Positions 5,192 to 13,809 of a stretch of 64,000 nucleotides of DNA are shown here, piece after piece (within the stretch, counting starts at the first letter, position 1; the number at the start of each line of letters is the position of its first letter). Source of the DNA: an uncultured Candidatus Saccharibacteria bacterium (GTDB lineage Bacteria > Patescibacteriota > Minisyncoccia > UBA6257 > JACOXY01); the NCBI GenBank assembly GCA_964357615.1, contig CAYHMC010000006.1:7144-71143 (forward strand), given 5' to 3'. Below the pieces are notes generated by a model. That model was not told the DNA's origin. It did not search any database and worked only from the letters and a program-made list of their open reading frames with translations. A program made the translations under genes and the position numbers.

Positions 5192-7426
5192 ATGAAACTA
5201 TCCGGTTCACAAAGTGAATATATTCTATATTTAGCCTCTTTTCCTCCTAGAGAATGTGGTATTGCAACATTTACTCAAGATTTAAGCGTTGCTTTTGATA
5301 AAAAATTTAACCCAGCTATAAAGTCTCGAATAGCGGCACTAAACGACGAACGACACACCATTTATAACTATGGAAATAAGGTTGTAGATCAAATTGTAGC
5401 CACAGAACTGCATGAATATGTAAAGCTAGCTAAAAGAATTAATTCTAGAGACGATATTAAGGTTATAAATATTCAACATGAATTCGGGCTTTTTGGTGGC
5501 GAGTGGGGTGACTACATAATCCCCTTTCTACAAGCGCTCGAAAAACCAGTCGTAATAACTTTTCACTCTGTAATTTCGGAACCAGACGACCATCTAAGGA
5601 ATGTTGTGCGAGCTATTGCAGAACATTCAATGTCTTTAGTTGTGATGAACAAACTTTCAGAGAAAACATTAATTACCGATTACAAAATATCGAAACAAAA
5701 AATCATGGTTATCCCTCATGGAATTCCATCAACAGCATTTGAGCCCAGTGAAATTTCAAAAGAAAAACTTGGGCTATCTGGCAATACAGTGCTCTCAACA
5801 TTTGGAATGTTAAGCCCCAACAAGGGAATCGAATATGCTATTCGCGCGCTTCCAGAAGTTATAAAACAATTTCCAAATGTGGTCTATTTAGTGCTCGGCG
5901 AAACACATCCTCTAATTAGAAAATCAAACGGAGAAGAATATAGAAATTTTTTAATAAAAGAAGTTGGTCGTCTTGGTCTCGACAAACATGTAAAGTTTTA
6001 TAATAAATACCTAACTCTCGATGAAATAGTTTCATTTTTGAAGGCAACAGATATTTATATTGGACCATCACTAGACATGCGCCAGTCTGTTTCTGGAACT
6101 CTTTCTTATGCGCTGGGGTGTGGTAGACCAGTAATATCAACCGAGTCAGAATATGCAAAATATTTAATTGATAGCACTGTAGGTCTTTTAGTAAAACCAA
6201 AAAACGATAGAGCTCTAAGAGATGCGATACTTCAAATGCTTCAGGACCCAAAATGGATGAAAAGTCTAAGCGCACAAGCATATGAAAAATCTCGCCCTAT
6301 GACATGGCCAAATGTAGCAGCAGCACATATGAATTTATATAAGAAATTTACTGAATTTGGTGAAGAAGAAAAGAAGCTCCCCGAACTAAAACTAGATCAT
6401 CTAAAGAGACTGACTGATAAATTCGGCATTTTGCATTTTGCTAAATACAGCACTCCTGAAACTAGGTATGGTTACAATCTCGACGACAATGCTAGGGCCT
6501 TAATTGTCGCAACACAAAGTTACGCACGAAATCACACGGTTGAAATGCTAGATTATATCAAAATCTACTTAAGCTATTTTGAATTTGTAATGCGTTCTGA
6601 TGGAACTTTTGCAAATATTGTTTCTTCTAAGTTAGTAAGAGACAAAACGCGAGACGAAGATGTCCAAGGCAGAGCATTTTGGGCACTTGGATATGTGGCT
6701 GCACAAAACTCTCTTCCAAAGGAAGTTGTTGATAAAGCAACGATTCTACTTAAGAAGGGACTGCGCAATGTGAGGGGTCTTAAATCCCCTCGGGCCATAG
6801 CCTTTACAATGATTGGCCTTTATTACTTCATAAAAAGCAATCCACAAAAATCTTTAATGCAAATTTTTACTAAATTTGCAGACTCTCTCACCGCTTTATA
6901 TAAAGAAAATTCGGATGCCGATTGGCAATGGTTTGAACCGCACCTTACATACTCAAACGCCGCTCTCCCCGAAGCGCTATTTTATGCTTATGAGTTAGTT
7001 AAAGATAAAAAATATTTAAATGTCGCTGAAGAATCTATCGCTTTTCTTAAAGGAATAACTTTTCTAAAAAAGCATTACTCTCCTATCGGCCAAAAAGGAT
7101 GGTTCTTCAGAGACAAGGCTAGGGCATTTTTTGATCAACAGCCAGAAGATACCGCACACATGGTTCAAGCCAAACTCACAGCTTATAATGTAACTGGCAA
7201 GTCAGAGCACTTTGAAGATGCGTACCGTGCATTTCAATGGTTTCTTGGCAAAAACTTTTTAAATCAAGTTATTTACGATGAGGGAACGGGTGGGTGTCAC
7301 GATGGATTAGGACAAGATGGAGTCAATTTGAACCAAGGCTCAGAATCTACAATATCTTACCTCCTAGCAAGATTGGCATTTGAAAATATAAACAAACCTC
7401 AAACCGACCTAGTACAAGAAGCGTAA
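5192..7426 (+). CDS. glycosyltransferase family 4 (GT-B, group 1) fused to a C-terminal (alpha/alpha)6-barrel-like domain
   Basis: 744 aa. N-terminus YILYLASFPPRECGIATFTQDL plus a GT4-type C-terminal lobe (about aa 1-390). The following roughly 350 aa (FGILHFAKYSTPETRYGYNLDDNARALI...) look like a glycosidase/epimerase-type alpha-barrel. Confidence 0.65.
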   Translation: MKLSGSQSEYILYLASFPPRECGIATFTQDLSVAFDKKFNPAIKSRIAALNDERHTIYNYGNKVVDQIVATELHEYVKLAKRINSRDDIKVINIQHEFGLFGGEWGDYIIPFLQALEKPVVITFHSVISEPDDHLRNVVRAIAEHSMSLVVMNKLSEKTLITDYKISKQKIMVIPHGIPSTAFEPSEISKEKLGLSGNTVLSTFGMLSPNKGIEYAIRALPEVIKQFPNVVYLVLGETHPLIRKSNGEEYRNFLIKEVGRLGLDKHVKFYNKYLTLDEIVSFLKATDIYIGPSLDMRQSVSGTLSYALGCGRPVISTESEYAKYLIDSTVGLLVKPKNDRALRDAILQMLQDPKWMKSLSAQAYEKSRPMTWPNVAAAHMNLYKKFTEFGEEEKKLPELKLDHLKRLTDKFGILHFAKYSTPETRYGYNLDDNARALIVATQSYARNHTVEMLDYIKIYLSYFEFVMRSDGTFANIVSSKLVRDKTRDEDVQGRAFWALGYVAAQNSLPKEVVDKATILLKKGLRNVRGLKSPRAIAFTMIGLYYFIKSNPQKSLMQIFTKFADSLTALYKENSDADWQWFEPHLTYSNAALPEALFYAYELVKDKKYLNVAEESIAFLKGITFLKKHYSPIGQKGWFFRDKARAFFDQQPEDTAHMVQAKLTAYNVTGKSEHFEDAYRAFQWFLGKNFLNQVIYDEGTGGCHDGLGQDGVNLNQGSESTISYLLARLAFENINKPQTDLVQEA

Positions 7427-8832: not shown

Positions 8833-9876
8833 ATGTTTGCTCGCTCAAATAGTAATCCGATTTTAAAACCTAATACAAAAAATGAGTGGGAAAGTTTTAA
8901 AGTCTATAACCCAGGTGCATTCTACGAAGATGGCGTTTACCATCTTTTTTATCGTGCCATGGGCAAAAATTGGATATCATCTATTGGACATGCCGTATCT
9001 GGTGATGGTGAAAATTTTGAACGCTCTAAGAGTCCGCTTCTCGCTTCTCCTCATAATTCCTACAGCATAGAAGATCCACGGGTAACAAAAATAAAGGATA
9101 AATATTTTTTAACGTTTACTCGCTACGATAAACTAAATGTTACCTTAAATCTTGCAACATCTACAGATTTAAAAAATTGGAATGTACATGGCGAAATGAT
9201 TCCAAGTTGGGATTTTAAAAAAGCCAGTGGGTTTTTGGTTGACTGGGATCCAGCCCAAGTTGAAGCAGAAAAAAATCTGGAAGCTAGTCACAAATGGTGC
9301 AAGGCCGGTGGAATTTTTGGAGAAATAATTGGTGACAAATATTGGATGCTCTTCGGAGATAGGCATATTTGGTTAGCAAATTCTGATGATGGAATAACTT
9401 GGAATCCAATATGGGAACCATTTATCAAGGCGCGAGGCAAAAACTATTTTGACGAAGAACATATAGAAATGGGTCCACCACCTATAAAAACTTCAAAGGG
9501 GTGGCTAGTTTTATATCATGGAGTAAATGATAAAATTGTTTACCGTCTTGGATTTATGCTTTTGGATTTAAATGATCCAACAAAAATACTTTATCGATCT
9601 AAGGATGCAATCTTTGAACCTCAAGAGTCATACGAGCTAAAAGGAATTGTGGATATTTTACCAGGTGGCTCTAAAGCAATGGAGAAAATGAATACGGAAG
9701 AGCTTGCAGAGTTTATTCAAAGATACGAAGAGAAAGACAAAATGCCTCGAGTAGCTTTTGTAAATGGTGCAGTTTTGGTTGGAGACACTTTGCGTATTTA
9801 TTACGGAGCAAGCGATTCGGTAATTTGCACTGCAACGGCAAATATAAGTGCTATTTTAAATCTTACACAAAGTTAA
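8833..9876 (+). CDS. glycoside hydrolase family 130 protein (second copy)
   Basis: NPILKPNTKNEWESFKVYNPGAFYEDGVYHLFYRAMG...IEDPRVTKIKDKYFLTFTRYD is a GH130 signature. It is a paralog of the 4003-5049 gene. Confidence 0.75.
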   Translation: MFARSNSNPILKPNTKNEWESFKVYNPGAFYEDGVYHLFYRAMGKNWISSIGHAVSGDGENFERSKSPLLASPHNSYSIEDPRVTKIKDKYFLTFTRYDKLNVTLNLATSTDLKNWNVHGEMIPSWDFKKASGFLVDWDPAQVEAEKNLEASHKWCKAGGIFGEIIGDKYWMLFGDRHIWLANSDDGITWNPIWEPFIKARGKNYFDEEHIEMGPPPIKTSKGWLVLYHGVNDKIVYRLGFMLLDLNDPTKILYRSKDAIFEPQESYELKGIVDILPGGSKAMEKMNTEELAEFIQRYEEKDKMPRVAFVNGAVLVGDTLRIYYGASDSVICTATANISAILNLTQS

Positions 9877-9889
9877 AACAAAAAAGACC

Positions 9890-10834
9890 CTATTTTTCTA
9901 AAAGTTTTAATTTAATCTTATAAGCATTGCCGTGATGCAACATTCCCAAGTAAGAATTAGCTGCTTGAATATTTTCATTTCCTTTCATTCTTTTAAACAT
10001 TCTTCTTTTAGTAGCCGTGCGCAATACGCGATGACTAGGAAAGTGCACCCAACCTAAAAAATCAAGACCAGAAGCAAGAGTTTTCATATAAAGTTTTTGG
10101 GGATGTAATTCTAAGCCCAATCTATAATATAAAAAGTTTTTTATTGGTTCTATTTGATTTTCTAACCATTCCCTATTTTCCGACAAAATCACGAAGTCAT
10201 CTGCATAACGAATATAATAATTAGCTTTAAGCCTGTGCTTAACAAATTGGTCAAATTCATTCATATAGATATTCACAAAAAGCTGAGATGTTAAGTTGCC
10301 AAGCGGCAGACCAACTCCCGATCTAGTGAAAAAACTATCAATTATATTTTGAAGAAGCCTAAGTAAATCTTTGTCCTCAATTCTTGCGCACAAAATATCC
10401 ATCAAAACTTGGTGGTGAATATTAGCAAAGAATTTTTTTATATCACATTTTAGAATGAAGCAGGTTCGAGTATTGTTTTTACTAACTTTGTAGCCAAAAC
10501 TCTTAAACCTATCTAATGCTTTATGAGTTCCCTTATTTATTCTGCATGAATAAGAATCTGAAATAAAGGTTTTATCAAAAAATGGATATAGTTTTCTATA
10601 AATTGCGTGATGCAAAAGTCTGTCCCTAACAGAGGCTTTGTGTATATTTCTTGGTTTTGGATCAGAGATATTAAAAGCTTTATAATTTCCGTGACTGTAG
10701 GTTTTATTTAAAAGCTCCTCATACAGCAATAGAATATTGTCCATGAATTTTAAAGAAAATTCTTGAACATCTTTTCTATTATGCTTACCCTTTACAAATT
10801 CTCTCCAAGCTTCTAATATATTTTCCACTCCCAA
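9890..10834 (-). CDS. diversity-generating retroelement (DGR) reverse transcriptase
   Basis: 314 aa with RT motifs and YADD (IRYADDFVIL). Motif 4 reads LPLGNLTSQLFVNIY, the DGR-specific [I/L]GxxxSQ form. The compact size is typical of DGR RTs, and it lies next to a TR/VR pair. Confidence 0.85.
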   Translation of the reverse strand: MGVENILEAWREFVKGKHNRKDVQEFSLKFMDNILLLYEELLNKTYSHGNYKAFNISDPKPRNIHKASVRDRLLHHAIYRKLYPFFDKTFISDSYSCRINKGTHKALDRFKSFGYKVSKNNTRTCFILKCDIKKFFANIHHQVLMDILCARIEDKDLLRLLQNIIDSFFTRSGVGLPLGNLTSQLFVNIYMNEFDQFVKHRLKANYYIRYADDFVILSENREWLENQIEPIKNFLYYRLGLELHPQKLYMKTLASGLDFLGWVHFPSHRVLRTATKRRMFKRMKGNENIQAANSYLGMLHHGNAYKIKLKLLEK

Positions 10835-10873
10835 AACTTCTTCGAAATTTTAAGTAAACATAATTTTCATTAT

Positions 10874-10902
10874 AAAAAAAAAACTTTTAATCCCCCCCCC
10901 CC
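10874..10902. repeat. homopolymeric A10 and C11 tracts in the divergent RT/Avd intergenic region
   Basis: aaaaaaaaaa (10874-10883) and ccccccccccc (10892-10902), located between the RT start (10834, minus) and the Avd start (10931, plus). Confidence 0.9.
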
Positions 10903-10930
10903 ACGGAATAATATTTCAATTATTCAACAC

Positions 10931-11251
10931 TTGATACGTGCATATAAACTTTGGCACGGATTCTTGCCTCATATCCCAAAAGACGCACGCTACACTGTTG
11001 GCGCCAAAGTAGATTCTGCTTTTATTGAAACAGTTGAAGCGGTGTTCCGTGCAAGTATCACAGCTAAAGATAAAAAAATTGCCTACATCGAAGAAGCTTC
11101 GATAAAATTGGATATAGTTAAATTTTTCCTACAGATTATCTGGGAAATCAAAGCATTGGATACTAAAAAATATGCTCTTATCTCTGCAGAACTAAATGAG
11201 ATAGGCAGAATGATTGGCGGCTGGCTAAGACAAGCTATGAGCCGAAACTAA
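10931..11251 (+). CDS. Avd-like accessory variability determinant (four-helix-bundle protein, TIGR02436-like), TTG start
   Basis: 106 aa. The pattern ...IPKDARYTVGAKVDSAFIETVEAV...KIAYIEEASIKLDIVKFFLQIIWEIKAL...ISAELNEIGRMIGGWL matches the four-helix-bundle / Avd family. It is adjacent to the RT and TR. Confidence 0.65.
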   Translation: MIRAYKLWHGFLPHIPKDARYTVGAKVDSAFIETVEAVFRASITAKDKKIAYIEEASIKLDIVKFFLQIIWEIKALDTKKYALISAELNEIGRMIGGWLRQAMSRN

Positions 11252-11298
11252 CCACCAAACATTTTCTCCCTACTATTTTATAAAACATTTATTGCCAG

Positions 11299-11427
11299 TT
11301 GCCGGAAACTGCCACTCGACCGTTCGAGTTCTGATCATTGTCGAGCCAGTTCCAGTTGAGATACCAACGCTTGCCATCCTGATTGAGGTACGGGACGTTC
11401 CGGTTGCCGTTCTCGTTCACCACGATT
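11299..11427 (-). repeat. DGR template repeat (TR), about 129 bp, coding orientation on minus strand
   Basis: About 87% identical to 11768-11896. All 17 mismatches are T on the plus strand here (A on the minus strand). The minus-strand translation is Asn-rich (VVNENGNRNVPYLNQDGKRWYLNWNWLDNDQNSNGRVAVSG) with AAC codons. Confidence 0.85.
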
Positions 11428-11683
11428 GTACGAAAAATCACCCACGTCACCACCCCTTGAATTATCTTGAGGTTGTATATTATTCGGAATCTATAATTCT
11501 CTGATTTCTCGCACCAAGTAGCAAAAATGTGTAGCGTATAGATACAACTCTCTGGCAGAAAAATTTTCCGCTGCCATTCTCGTTTGTATTATCGCAGAGT
11601 TCAACCGCGTACAACCTTAGCCGTACGCGCAACGTCTACTATCTATATTTAAAATATCATAAGTTTAATAAATAAAAAAATTA

Positions 11684-11701
11684 CCCTTACTTTCGTAAGG
11701 G
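11684..11701 (-). terminator. rho-independent terminator downstream of DGR target gene (CCCTTAC-TTTC-GTAAGGG plus T-run on minus strand)
   Basis: A 7-bp perfect stem with a 4-nt loop is followed on the minus strand by TTTTTTT (A-run 11674-11680 on plus). It lies about 60 bp after the target stop. Confidence 0.6.
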
Positions 11702-11763
11702 ATTTCGGTCCAAGGGACCAAGGGACAAGAAGTCCCCAGGTCCCAAGGATCCGAATGCCAATG

Positions 11764-12378
11764 CTACTTGCCGGAAACTGCCACCCGACCGTCCGAGCGC
11801 TGACCATGGCCGAGCCAGTCCCAGTGGAGATACCAACGCTTGCCACCCTGATCGAGGTACGGGACGTCCCGGTCGCCGTTCTCGCGCACCACGACCAAGC
11901 CCGGAAAATCGATGTAGACTTTTCCGAGAAGAGCCATGAACTCGGGGAACTCGTCTTGATGGTCGACCAGCCAGACTGCTTGCTGATAACCGAGAGTTGG
12001 CAAAGAGATGATTCTTCGCTCGTATTCGACGCCACCGACCGAACCTTCGTCAGGCCGGAGAACCGTTCCGAGGGATAGCGTTACGGCTTCCGTCGGCGAG
12101 TTGTCGCGCTCGATGGATTTGATCCACGAGAACTTCGCTTGAATCTCTGCGATAGTCGGACGTGGAAGTGCGGGAATCTGAATCGCGACGTCCTCCATTT
12201 TCCGGAAGAAGCCTGCTGCAGCGATGAGCTTCGCGACGAACTCGTCGGTGAGCAACTTCAACGTATCCTCCGAAAGGTCGAGAACTGCTTCTTCTGATCG
12301 ACTGACCTTCAGTCCGCCGATGATGCGCGTTGTGATGGTCGTGAGAAACCCGAATGCCGAACCGATTTGTGACTTCAT
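11764..12378 (-). CDS. DGR target (variable) protein, 204 aa, GC-rich, VR-encoded C-terminus
   Basis: The minus-strand ORF ends 4 nt beyond the VR. Its GC content (mid-50s percent) is far above the flanking genes (about 33%). The C-terminal WYL.W.WL ligand-binding-like segment is diversified. Confidence 0.75.
   Translation of the reverse strand: MKSQIGSAFGFLTTITTRIIGGLKVSRSEEAVLDLSEDTLKLLTDEFVAKLIAAAGFFRKMEDVAIQIPALPRPTIAEIQAKFSWIKSIERDNSPTEAVTLSLGTVLRPDEGSVGGVEYERRIISLPTLGYQQAVWLVDHQDEFPEFMALLGKVYIDFPGLVVVRENGDRDVPYLDQGGKRWYLHWDWLGHGQRSDGRVAVSGK
11768..11896 (-). repeat. DGR variable repeat (VR) at 3' end of target gene
   Basis: Partner of the TR. It encodes VVRENGDRDVPYLDQGGKRWYLHWDWLGHGQRSDGRVAVSG at the target protein's C-terminus. 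The substitutions are AAC/AAT/GAT to CGC/GAC/GGT/CAC/CAT/GGC. Confidence 0.85.
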
Positions 12379-12651
12379 TGTACTACTCCTTTTTCCATGG
12401 TTTACCCCTCATTCTCGCACCATGCGAAAACCCCAGGCTCACCATTGTACTGCTTCTATTATACCATATTTAACCTATCTTTGCAATACCACACAAAACC
12501 TATAATTTATAACGCTTATATCTAAGCAGAATGTCGCGAAGGTCAAAAAGCTTGGTATCCGAAGGATTTTTTGACCGAGCGTCAAATTCCAACTTTTCGC
12601 AGGAAAAAGTTGGAATGTTTCTGCGTGATATAAGTGATATAAATTATCCCC

Positions 12652-13809
12652 CTACCTCAACTTATACCTTTCCTTTATAAGCTTAGTAATTTGTTTTGCA
12701 ATAGTATGATATTCAAATTTTGCTAGGGCATGCTCCGCTCCAGCTTTACCCATTTTTTCGCGCAAATCTTTATCTGTTAGGAGTTTAAGCAACGATTCTG
12801 CAAGAGAATTAACATCAGCACGATATGCAAATGTTTTTGGTTTATCAAAAATAATTTTATGGTCCTCTTCATAACCCATATCTTTATAAACCCATTCTTC
12901 ATCCAACTCTACAGTATCAGCCACAGGCGCTAAAAAACCAGTGACATCTTTAATGATTGTCTCCTTAGGCCCCATATGGTCAATTGAAATAACTGGTTTA
13001 CCACATGCTTGAGCTTCTACCTGAATCATTCCAAAACCCTCAAGACGAGATGGAGCTGCGTATATATCACAAGTGTTTAATAAAACATTCATAAACTCGT
13101 ATGACATTGGGCCTTCTGCAAATACAACGCGATCTTTATCCTCTCCTAATTCTTCAAGCAATGCTTGTTCGTCATCATAGTGTGAGTCCGCACTCTCCCC
13201 TCCCCAAAGTTTACAAATATATTTCCAAGAAATACCTTTCGTTCTTAACTCATCTTGTATTAACTTAAGAGCTTTAAAAACTTCTTGAGCTCCTTTTGAA
13301 GTAACATCTCCTCCGGCAGTTAAGATAACTACATCGCTATCTTCTATGCCAAGCATTGCCTTCATTGTCTTAATTTGCGGATCAGATTTTTTTAGTGGAT
13401 GACGACAAGCAGGATCGAAGCCAATATGTGCCACTTCAAAATTTTTAACATTTGTTCCGTCTCGCTTATAAGTTTCTTTCACCCACTCACTTGTAACTAA
13501 GACAAGTGGAAGTTCCCCTAAATCTTTTTGATAGTTTGCAACCCAGCCGTCAGCCACAAGCCAAGGCACAGAATTAATGCCAAATTGCTTTGCATGATGA
13601 ACAATGTCCGGTGTATTATTCCAAAACCCCACACCAACTGCAATATCTGGTTTAAAATATTTATAAGTCCATTCTTTTTGAAACTCAGCTCCTATACTAC
13701 ATGGCATAACATCTTCTCCGTTTTCTTTCATACCAGTATACAAAAAATGACCTTGCATCGAAAGACCATCGGGTTCAGGAGGATACGCATATAAAATTAC
13801 AGACTTCAT
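12652..13809 (-). CDS. glycosyltransferase family 4 (group 1) protein
   Basis: 385 aa with EGFGMIQVEAQACGKPVISID and a GT-B fold signature. Confidence 0.75.
   Translation of the reverse strand: MKSVILYAYPPEPDGLSMQGHFLYTGMKENGEDVMPCSIGAEFQKEWTYKYFKPDIAVGVGFWNNTPDIVHHAKQFGINSVPWLVADGWVANYQKDLGELPLVLVTSEWVKETYKRDGTNVKNFEVAHIGFDPACRHPLKKSDPQIKTMKAMLGIEDSDVVILTAGGDVTSKGAQEVFKALKLIQDELRTKGISWKYICKLWGGESADSHYDDEQALLEELGEDKDRVVFAEGPMSYEFMNVLLNTCDIYAAPSRLEGFGMIQVEAQACGKPVISIDHMGPKETIIKDVTGFLAPVADTVELDEEWVYKDMGYEEDHKIIFDKPKTFAYRADVNSLAESLLKLLTDKDLREKMGKAGAEHALAKFEYHTIAKQITKLIKERYKLR

Follow-up and report, generated by a model that had tools for sequence, protein, structure and literature searches.

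A patescibacterial diversity-generating retroelement with a reverse-strand avd gene, a conserved RNA domain 5′ of its template repeat and a GC-rich target gene

In the diversity-generating retroelement (DGR) of Bordetella phage BPP-1, arranged as mtd-avd-TR-Sp-brt, the accessory gene avd is co-directional and lies upstream of the template repeat (TR), and both the primer strand and the RNA that binds reverse transcriptase (RT) and Avd lie in a 140-nucleotide (nt) spacer (Sp) 3′ of TR. A second arrangement has the order TR-(avd)-RT and a reverse-strand avd; Wu et al. 2018 (PMC5758913) call it architecture B3 and assign to it 90% of the DGRs in their set from the candidate phyla radiation (CPR). 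We analyzed a 64,000-nt stretch of DNA, hereafter the window, from an uncultured Candidatus Saccharibacteria bacterium (GenBank assembly GCA_964357615.1, contig CAYHMC010000006.1, positions 7,144 to 71,143 of the forward strand). It carries a DGR cassette whose core order is that of B3, TR-(avd)-RT with reverse-strand avd. Directly 5′ of TR we found a conserved, structured RNA domain containing an unpaired segment complementary to the end of the variable repeat (VR), a sequence named IMH (for initiation of mutagenic homing), whose counterpart in TR is called IMH*. The explanation that we favor, and consider probable, is a CPR-type B3 DGR with a separate DGR RNA, with priming and handling elements on the 5′ side of the template, and with a target gene whose GC-richness is not a mark of recent import. 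The features on which the argument rests are as follows.

9890..10834, minus strand: DGR reverse transcriptase, 314 amino acids from TTG (profile match, YADD motif)
10931..11251, plus strand: avd (accessory variability determinant), 106 amino acids from TTG; frame open upstream, true start uncertain
11210..11262, minus strand: hairpin 3′ of TR that encloses the avd stop codon; arms ATGTTTGGTGG (5′, in the spacer) and CCGCCAATCAT (3′)
11292..11301, minus strand: IMH* CAACTGGCAA, the TR 3′ end, with two fixed differences from IMH
11293..11427, minus strand: TR, with 37 adenines, GC content 0.549 and AT-rich flanks
11424..11643 (220 nt), minus strand: structured RNA domain directly 5′ of TR, 8 helices and 55 pairs (covariance model)
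11514..11524, minus strand: unpaired, nearly invariant segment TTGCTACTTGG, candidate primer or guide strand (IMH complementarity)
11651..11659, minus strand: putative extended -10-like box TGATATTTT, about 7 nt upstream of the RNA domain start (from comparison of cassettes)
11762..11770, minus strand: IMH core CAAGTAGCA, across the stop codon TAG; matched exactly, as reverse complement, by 9 nt of the RNA loop
11762..11896, minus strand: VR, with its 3′ end at the target stop codon (135-nt alignment to TR)
11764..12378, minus strand: target gene (ORF), 204 amino acids, conserved in the core, variable at the N-terminus and hypervariable at the C-terminus

The locus is a chromosomal DGR of the Patescibacteria (CPR) type. 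In a profile search, the RT open reading frame (ORF; 9890-10834, minus strand) matched RVT_1 with an E value of 1.3e-22, with the YADD motif present. A database search of this RT family returned over 8000 sequences at 65-72% identity, and its relatives are RTs of patescibacterial cassettes with identical layout; matches to the retron models of NCBIfam were far under the cut-offs of those models. Because the plus-strand ORF at 10931-11251 matches Avd profiles, the avd gene is real: it scored 55.1 bits against Pfam bAvd PF22296 (E=1.2e-14, gathering score 40) and 68.6 bits against NCBIfam DivGenRetAVD (NF033474; E=4.9e-19, under the model cut-off of 80), and as read from TTG it leaves about 15 N-terminal profile positions uncovered. 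Of the 19 positions at which TR and VR differ over 135 aligned nt, 17 are TR adenines (hypergeometric P=1.2e-9); codon positions 1 and 2 account for 15 of these 17. The remaining two differences are the fixed ones that distinguish IMH CAAGTAGCA from IMH* CAACTGGCA at the very 3′ end, and they recur in most related cassettes with this target family. An RT beside the repeats, an adenine-biased TR/VR pair, a VR within a coding target, the IMH/IMH* asymmetry and a GC-rich inverted repeat after VR are thus all present. A first-pass annotation of this DNA had described a DGR with target, VR, TR and RT on the minus strand and an Avd-like gene on the plus strand between TR and RT; every element was found at its position, the ORF positions confirm the place and strand of avd, and the Avd assignment passed the profile search above the PF22296 gathering score. 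The 17 adenine substitutions in VR comprise 13 A-to-G, four A-to-C and no A-to-T changes.

The same annotation had called the architecture unusual, a description that did not survive comparison with relatives. We collected 78 loci by scanning genome and metagenome collections with an alignment of the target family, and in each of them where avd was detected the order was target (+), TR (+), avd (-), RT (+). Order and spacing were equal in 21 non-redundant cassettes: the gap from TR to the avd stop codon was 31-55 nt (in the window, avd lies antisense 41 nt downstream of TR), and the avd-RT gap was mostly 62-98 nt and about 200 nt in three cassettes. Four RT-anchored loci, including one in the complete genome CP066687.1, carry other target families; three of the four have the B3 order, and no avd gene was called in the fourth (L136). 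With B3 the norm in CPR and found in 21/21 related cassettes and three of four RT-anchored loci, the layout is unusual solely relative to Bordetella-type elements, and among CPR B3 DGRs the element is an ordinary one. CPR B3 DGRs, as Wu et al. 2018 present them, have the gene order, strands and host clade seen in the window as well as a small target without a Pfam domain, and we found no difference in layout. In the literature on CPR B3 DGRs we found neither a 5′ RNA domain nor a split in composition between target and RT/avd described.

The RNA domain emerged from the non-coding sequence that separates the terminator of the target from TR. This sequence is 92% identical between the window and its closest relative, L079, as against only 68-83% for the proteins, and it aligns well over 19-20 cassettes. 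RNAalifold on that alignment gave 8 helices with 55 pairs, 37 of which show compensatory changes. The proportion of paired cells was 97.1%, compared with 37-55% when the partners were slid, and 0 of 500 shuffles reached any of five measures. Frequent G-U pairs identify the RNA strand as the strand of target and TR. A covariance model matched 43 of the 78 CPR loci, always on the target strand and between target stop and TR, and the matches include many loci outside the seed as well as RT-anchored loci; the window copy scored 225.8 bits. In all intact cassettes the domain adjoins TR within 4-5 nt. Structured RNAs beside bacterial RT genes are known from the Rfam families RT-1 to RT-19 (Weinberg et al. 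2017), of which RT-10 is the BPP-1 spacer RNA; unlike these, the region 9000-13500 of the window matches no family of Rfam 15 at E≤1. A 15-mer, TTGCTACTTGGTGCG, is shared with 51 viral contigs, and we attribute this to chance because none of the 51 contains a match to the covariance model.

Directly upstream of the domain, after the T-run of the terminator-like hairpin, is a box of the form TGnTAnnnT that is kept in most cassettes and suggests an independent promoter for the RNA domain. The first-pass annotation had left open whether the TR RNA and the RT mRNA are separate transcripts; the conserved extended -10-like box, together with the 220-nt structured leader upstream of TR, favors that they are. 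The domain is apparently undescribed. In surveying RNA elements, Handa et al. covered only the 40 nt upstream of TR and the 100 nt that follow it, and annotation scans restricted to the region downstream of TR would miss a domain on the 5′ side.

The VR 3′ end, CAAGTAGCA(A), has its reverse complement within the domain, in the segment TTGCTACTTGG (11514-11524), which is unpaired and nearly invariant. In the window this segment is complementary to IMH at 9/10 positions and to IMH* at 8/10. Among 34 non-redundant loci, the 10-mer matched the VR end at 10/10 in 17 and at ≥9/10 in 22, and all but two of the loci under 9/10 still reached at least 8/10; the match to the TR end never exceeded 8/10 because of the two fixed IMH* differences. 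Loop and IMH covary, as in the variant pairs AAGCTACTTG/CAAGTAGCTT, GAGCTACTTG/CAAGTAGCTC, CTGCTACTTA/TAAGTAGCAG and ACAGGAATTG/CAATTCCT. The position of the complement is near-constant, 90-115 nt (about 100 nt) upstream of TR, with a mean match of 9.4/10, and in the 235 nt downstream of TR we found only chance-level complements of IMH (mean 6.7/10, equal length). The window has no Bordetella-type primer strand and structured spacer (Rfam RT-10) downstream of TR. In BPP-1, the primer strand Sp47-56 is complementary to IMH at 9/10 positions and to IMH* at 6/10. Naorem et al. 2017 reported that the BPP-1 primer better matches IMH and suggested that homing takes its direction from primer:IMH pairing, so the pairing principle is known already; the part that we have not found described is the location 5′ of the template, inside a large structured domain.

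The window and BPP-1 have RT and Avd, adenine-specific transfer from TR to VR, IMH/IMH* asymmetry and an RNA strand that pairs better with IMH than with IMH* in common, and probably also a duplex that flanks TR on its 5′ side (helix 6 in the window and the cPRT Stop in BPP-1). They differ in that avd is antisense and 3′ of TR in the window, and in that the putative counterparts of the BPP-1 primer strand and RT/Avd-binding RNA lie 5′ of TR. With the noncoding RNA of retrons (msr-msd) the locus shares topology only, namely a putative priming strand 5′ of the template in one RNA, toward which the RT would copy. Unlike a retron, it has an RT of the DGR clade, a TR/VR pair and Avd, and it has no msr/msd inverted repeats and no effector gene.

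From sequence and by analogy, we infer a permuted, retron-like DGR RNA made apart from the RT mRNA. The DGR RNA would be a separate transcript of at least ~430 nt, running from ~11645 to at least 11210, and the elements for priming and for handling by RT and Avd would be placed 5′ of the template, unlike the 3′ spacer of the Bordetella phage. The 11-mer would fold back on IMH* and prime cDNA synthesis by RT-Avd, which would run 3′ to 5′ through TR with misincorporation opposite adenines and would halt at a 12-bp helix whose end is 4-5 nt short of TR. Perfect pairing of the 11-mer with IMH would then direct the RNA-linked cDNA to VR. With the bulky RNA elements upstream, a short hairpin might suffice after TR, and we propose that it is because these elements are 5′ of TR that avd can sit antisense 41 nt downstream of it. 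That CPR B3 DGRs, which make up much of the known DGR repertoire, use as a class a circularly permuted, retron-like RNA, with a strand of the 5′ domain that primes on IMH* and guides the cDNA to IMH, is a tentative generalization that we hold with slightly more doubt than confidence. If it is true, the covariation of loop and IMH would be the first comparative evidence that RNA:DNA pairing sets the choice of target site in DGRs, and the permutation would explain an antisense avd straight after TR.

To our knowledge, the sole mechanistic model of how DGR cDNA finds and enters its target was worked out on a single phage element. The covariation of a conserved RNA strand with IMH over dozens of distant cassettes lends support from natural variation to RNA-guided target recognition. 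The RNA organization of the most abundant DGR class, that of CPR, appears to be unlike the textbook one, which matters for the annotation of DGR RNAs and for the engineering of compact DGRs.

Several points weigh against this account. The start site and the 3′ end of the RNA are predicted boundaries, the transcript may continue into RT, and on the minus strand between TR and RT we found no terminator-like site. Priming by the 11-mer is an analogy with the Bordetella phage rather than a demonstration; the 11-mer could serve target recognition alone, or pair with the target mRNA. Because IMH and IMH* are homologous, covariation cannot separate loop:IMH from loop:IMH* pairing. Some decayed loci retain the domain after loss of TR, avd and RT, and it might therefore have a role for the target gene. 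Since the start of the RT ORF is cut by a TAA and avd is without a canonical start, the present-day activity of this copy is uncertain. Finally, a full-text literature search that had Paul et al. 2017 outside its scope returned no description of a domain 5′ of TR in CPR DGRs, and one may already be given there.

Downstream of TR, an inverted repeat (11252-11262 with 11210-11220) is conserved, with its 5′ arm in the short spacer and the avd stop codon enclosed. The 3′ arm runs antisense to the part of avd that codes for M-(L/I)-G-G (M-I-G-G in the window). In this hairpin 87% of cells were paired, compared with 32-48% in slid controls, and covariation was weak because one arm is coding. It was the only conserved hairpin that we found downstream of TR. 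Handa et al. predicted that a stem-loop just downstream of TR binds Avd in many DGRs, and by analogy the post-TR hairpin may be the counterpart of this stem-loop. As an intrinsic terminator for avd it was rejected by inspection in most cassettes, which have no U-run on the avd strand.

A hairpin that spans the 3′ end of avd would also fit another arrangement, in which a single long minus-strand RNA, antisense to avd, covers both TR and RT, the overlap regulates the dosage of Avd, and the 5′ domain is a leader. The tight, conserved spacing and the lack of a terminator-like site before RT agree with such a transcript, and the promoter-like box upstream of the domain is compatible with it. Against it, a weak -10-like site lies directly upstream of RT (10876-10847), and the Bordetella RT acts on a discrete DGR RNA. 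Convergent transcription over the whole gene would moreover hamper expression of avd, and Avd is required stoichiometrically. We judge the co-transcript unlikely as the explanation of the layout; it is compatible with a CPR-type B3 DGR that makes its DGR RNA separately, and the two are not exclusive.

This particular copy departs from its relatives at the starts of both RT and avd. In L139, whose RT clusters with that of the window at ≥90% identity, RT starts at an ATG 12 codons upstream (L139 115-160); the L079 RT begins at the corresponding ATG, and the start in the relatives reads MKIKFTKNFEE... In the window the frame from this ATG (10868-10870, minus strand) is closed by a TAA (10850-10852) at codon 7, so that RT can start only at the TTG at 10834, minus about 12 N-terminal residues. 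The frame of avd is open upstream through a homopolymer tract, with no ATG, GTG or TTG before 10931.

10874..10902, plus strand: A10 and C11 homopolymer tracts in the avd-RT gap and avd 5′ region

In L079 (6440-6500), a C12 tract keeps an ATG-initiated Avd of 126 amino acids in frame; the window has C11 for C12 and an ATT at the position of the L079 avd ATG. A C7-C12 tract is present in 14/21 cassettes, several of which lack an in-frame canonical avd start. The anomaly of tract and start could be a phase switch, a requirement for frameshifting, a non-canonical start or an assembly error.

On this evidence the cassette might be decaying or switched off, its layout without present function. The early stop in the ATG-initiated RT frame, the missing canonical start ahead of the conserved N-terminal residues of Avd, the C11 tract as against C12 in the in-frame L079 and the existence of decayed relatives all point that way. 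We nevertheless doubt it, since TTG starts are available for both RT and avd, the catalytic motifs of RT are intact, and the Avd domain is whole from profile position 15. TR, the RNA domain and IMH are intact as well, VR and TR differ at adenines save for the two fixed IMH/IMH* differences, and the length of the homopolymer may reflect misassembly or a switch that can be reversed.

In the decayed relatives TR, avd and RT are missing and housekeeping genes take their place, but the target and the RNA domain (up to 217 bits) have been retained. The domain lies at these positions in the decayed loci:

L001: 6596-6838
L016: 6627-6853
L002: 1731-1961
L003: 5461-5678
L018: 6619-6943

The last of these, L018, has a 60-nt TR remnant with solely A-to-N differences.

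Four of these loci (L001, L002, L003 and L016), together with the complementarity of the 11-mer to the sense strand and hence to the target mRNA around its stop codon, are what could be said for placing the 220-nt element outside the RT machinery, as an element that regulates the target mRNA in cis or affects its stability, or as a small RNA that pairs with that mRNA at the stop codon. This is improbable in our view. The element immediately precedes TR in every intact cassette, it is kept across cassettes with unrelated targets, and a terminator-like hairpin and a promoter-like box stand between it and the target gene. The same relation of primer to IMH is found, furthermore, in the experimentally studied Bordetella DGR RNA.

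The first-pass annotation had also reported a GC-rich target in an AT-rich cassette, and the shift in composition is real. GC content is 0.567 in the target, 0.654 in VR and 0.549 in TR, as against 0.313 in RT, 0.386 in avd and 0.362 in the whole window. GC at third codon positions (GC3) is 0.673 in the target (0.64 without VR), versus 0.253 ± 0.027 with a maximum of 0.306 in 30 host ORFs, an excess of about 15 standard deviations; RT (0.273) and avd (0.336) are host-like. Amino-acid content, the explanation that the annotation itself had named as fatal to its reading, was rejected by the scan of GC and codon usage: recoded with host codon usage, the target protein has a predicted GC of 0.41. 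Avoidance of adenine was likewise rejected, as A and T are both depleted at third positions (0.14 and 0.18). From VR toward the 5′ end, GC3 in the non-VR part of the target declines only mildly, from 0.72 to 0.61; this is not a steep gradient away from the homing site, and a repair-linked bias is neither supported nor excluded.

Across 35 non-redundant loci, target GC3 averaged 0.695 and was above that of the host in 33, independent of a host GC3 that ranged from 0.27 to 0.67 (slope 0.26, p=0.23); RT GC3, by contrast, follows the host (slope 0.67, r=0.89, p=7e-4). L079 shows this pattern too, and so do the four cassettes with other target families. The divergences of RT, Avd and target core are correlated (Mantel r=0.60, p=2e-4), by which a module swap of target plus TR was rejected, and the nearest cassette for RT, Avd and target alike is L079. 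TR forms a GC island, AT-rich on either side, and the spacer between target and TR has a GC content of 0.36. The host-independent excess, the correlated divergences and the TR island together make a recent GC-rich donor a poor explanation. The GC-rich target and TR are a conserved, clade-wide property of the cassettes and not a mark of recent import.

Recent acquisition of target and repeats, or of the whole cassette, from a GC-richer donor with amelioration of RT and avd only, as the first-pass annotation suggested, is very improbable for all the size of the GC3 excess and the use of deviant GC by Wu et al. as an indicator of horizontal DGR transfer: target and RT have diverged from their relatives to the same degree, the best database match of the target is only 65% identical, the AT-rich spacer means that no contiguous GC-rich block was imported, and differential amelioration inside 2.5 kb would itself require a constraint on the target. 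A target that is equally GC-rich in any host calls for caution in reading GC deviation of DGR cassettes as horizontal transfer.

The target gene has a promoter-like site and a terminator-like hairpin to itself.

12458..12486, minus strand: target promoter-like site, TTGCAA-17-TATAAT with TG before it (consensus match 10/12, top site of a 3-kb scan)
11684..11749, minus strand: region downstream of VR, with a GC-rich hairpin, TCCCTTGG repeats and a terminator-like hairpin
11733-11749, minus strand: GC-rich hairpin after VR
11684-11701, minus strand: intrinsic-terminator-like hairpin with T-run

Between VR and the terminator, the tandem TCCCTTGG motif (11710-11725, minus strand) has two copies in the window and four in L079 (about 5630-5670), so that this GC-rich repeat downstream of IMH differs in copy number.

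The target belongs to a family of ~200-amino-acid proteins, and all hits with an organism name were Patescibacteria. The protein had no match in Pfam or NCBIfam. No member of the family was found in the viral contigs of IMG/VR, and the family is not evidently phage-borne. An AlphaFold model of the target had a predicted local distance difference test score (pLDDT) above 90 over residues 61-200; it had no significant structural neighbors, and the weak matches include several C-type lectins. One locus of this patescibacterial target family, L014 (JAUYPG010000046.1), is in a bin labelled Nanoarchaeota, which may be a binning error or a cross-domain occurrence. In L010 (8546-8989), L038, L043, L056 and L058, a second gene of the target family lies downstream of RT, giving two targets per cassette.

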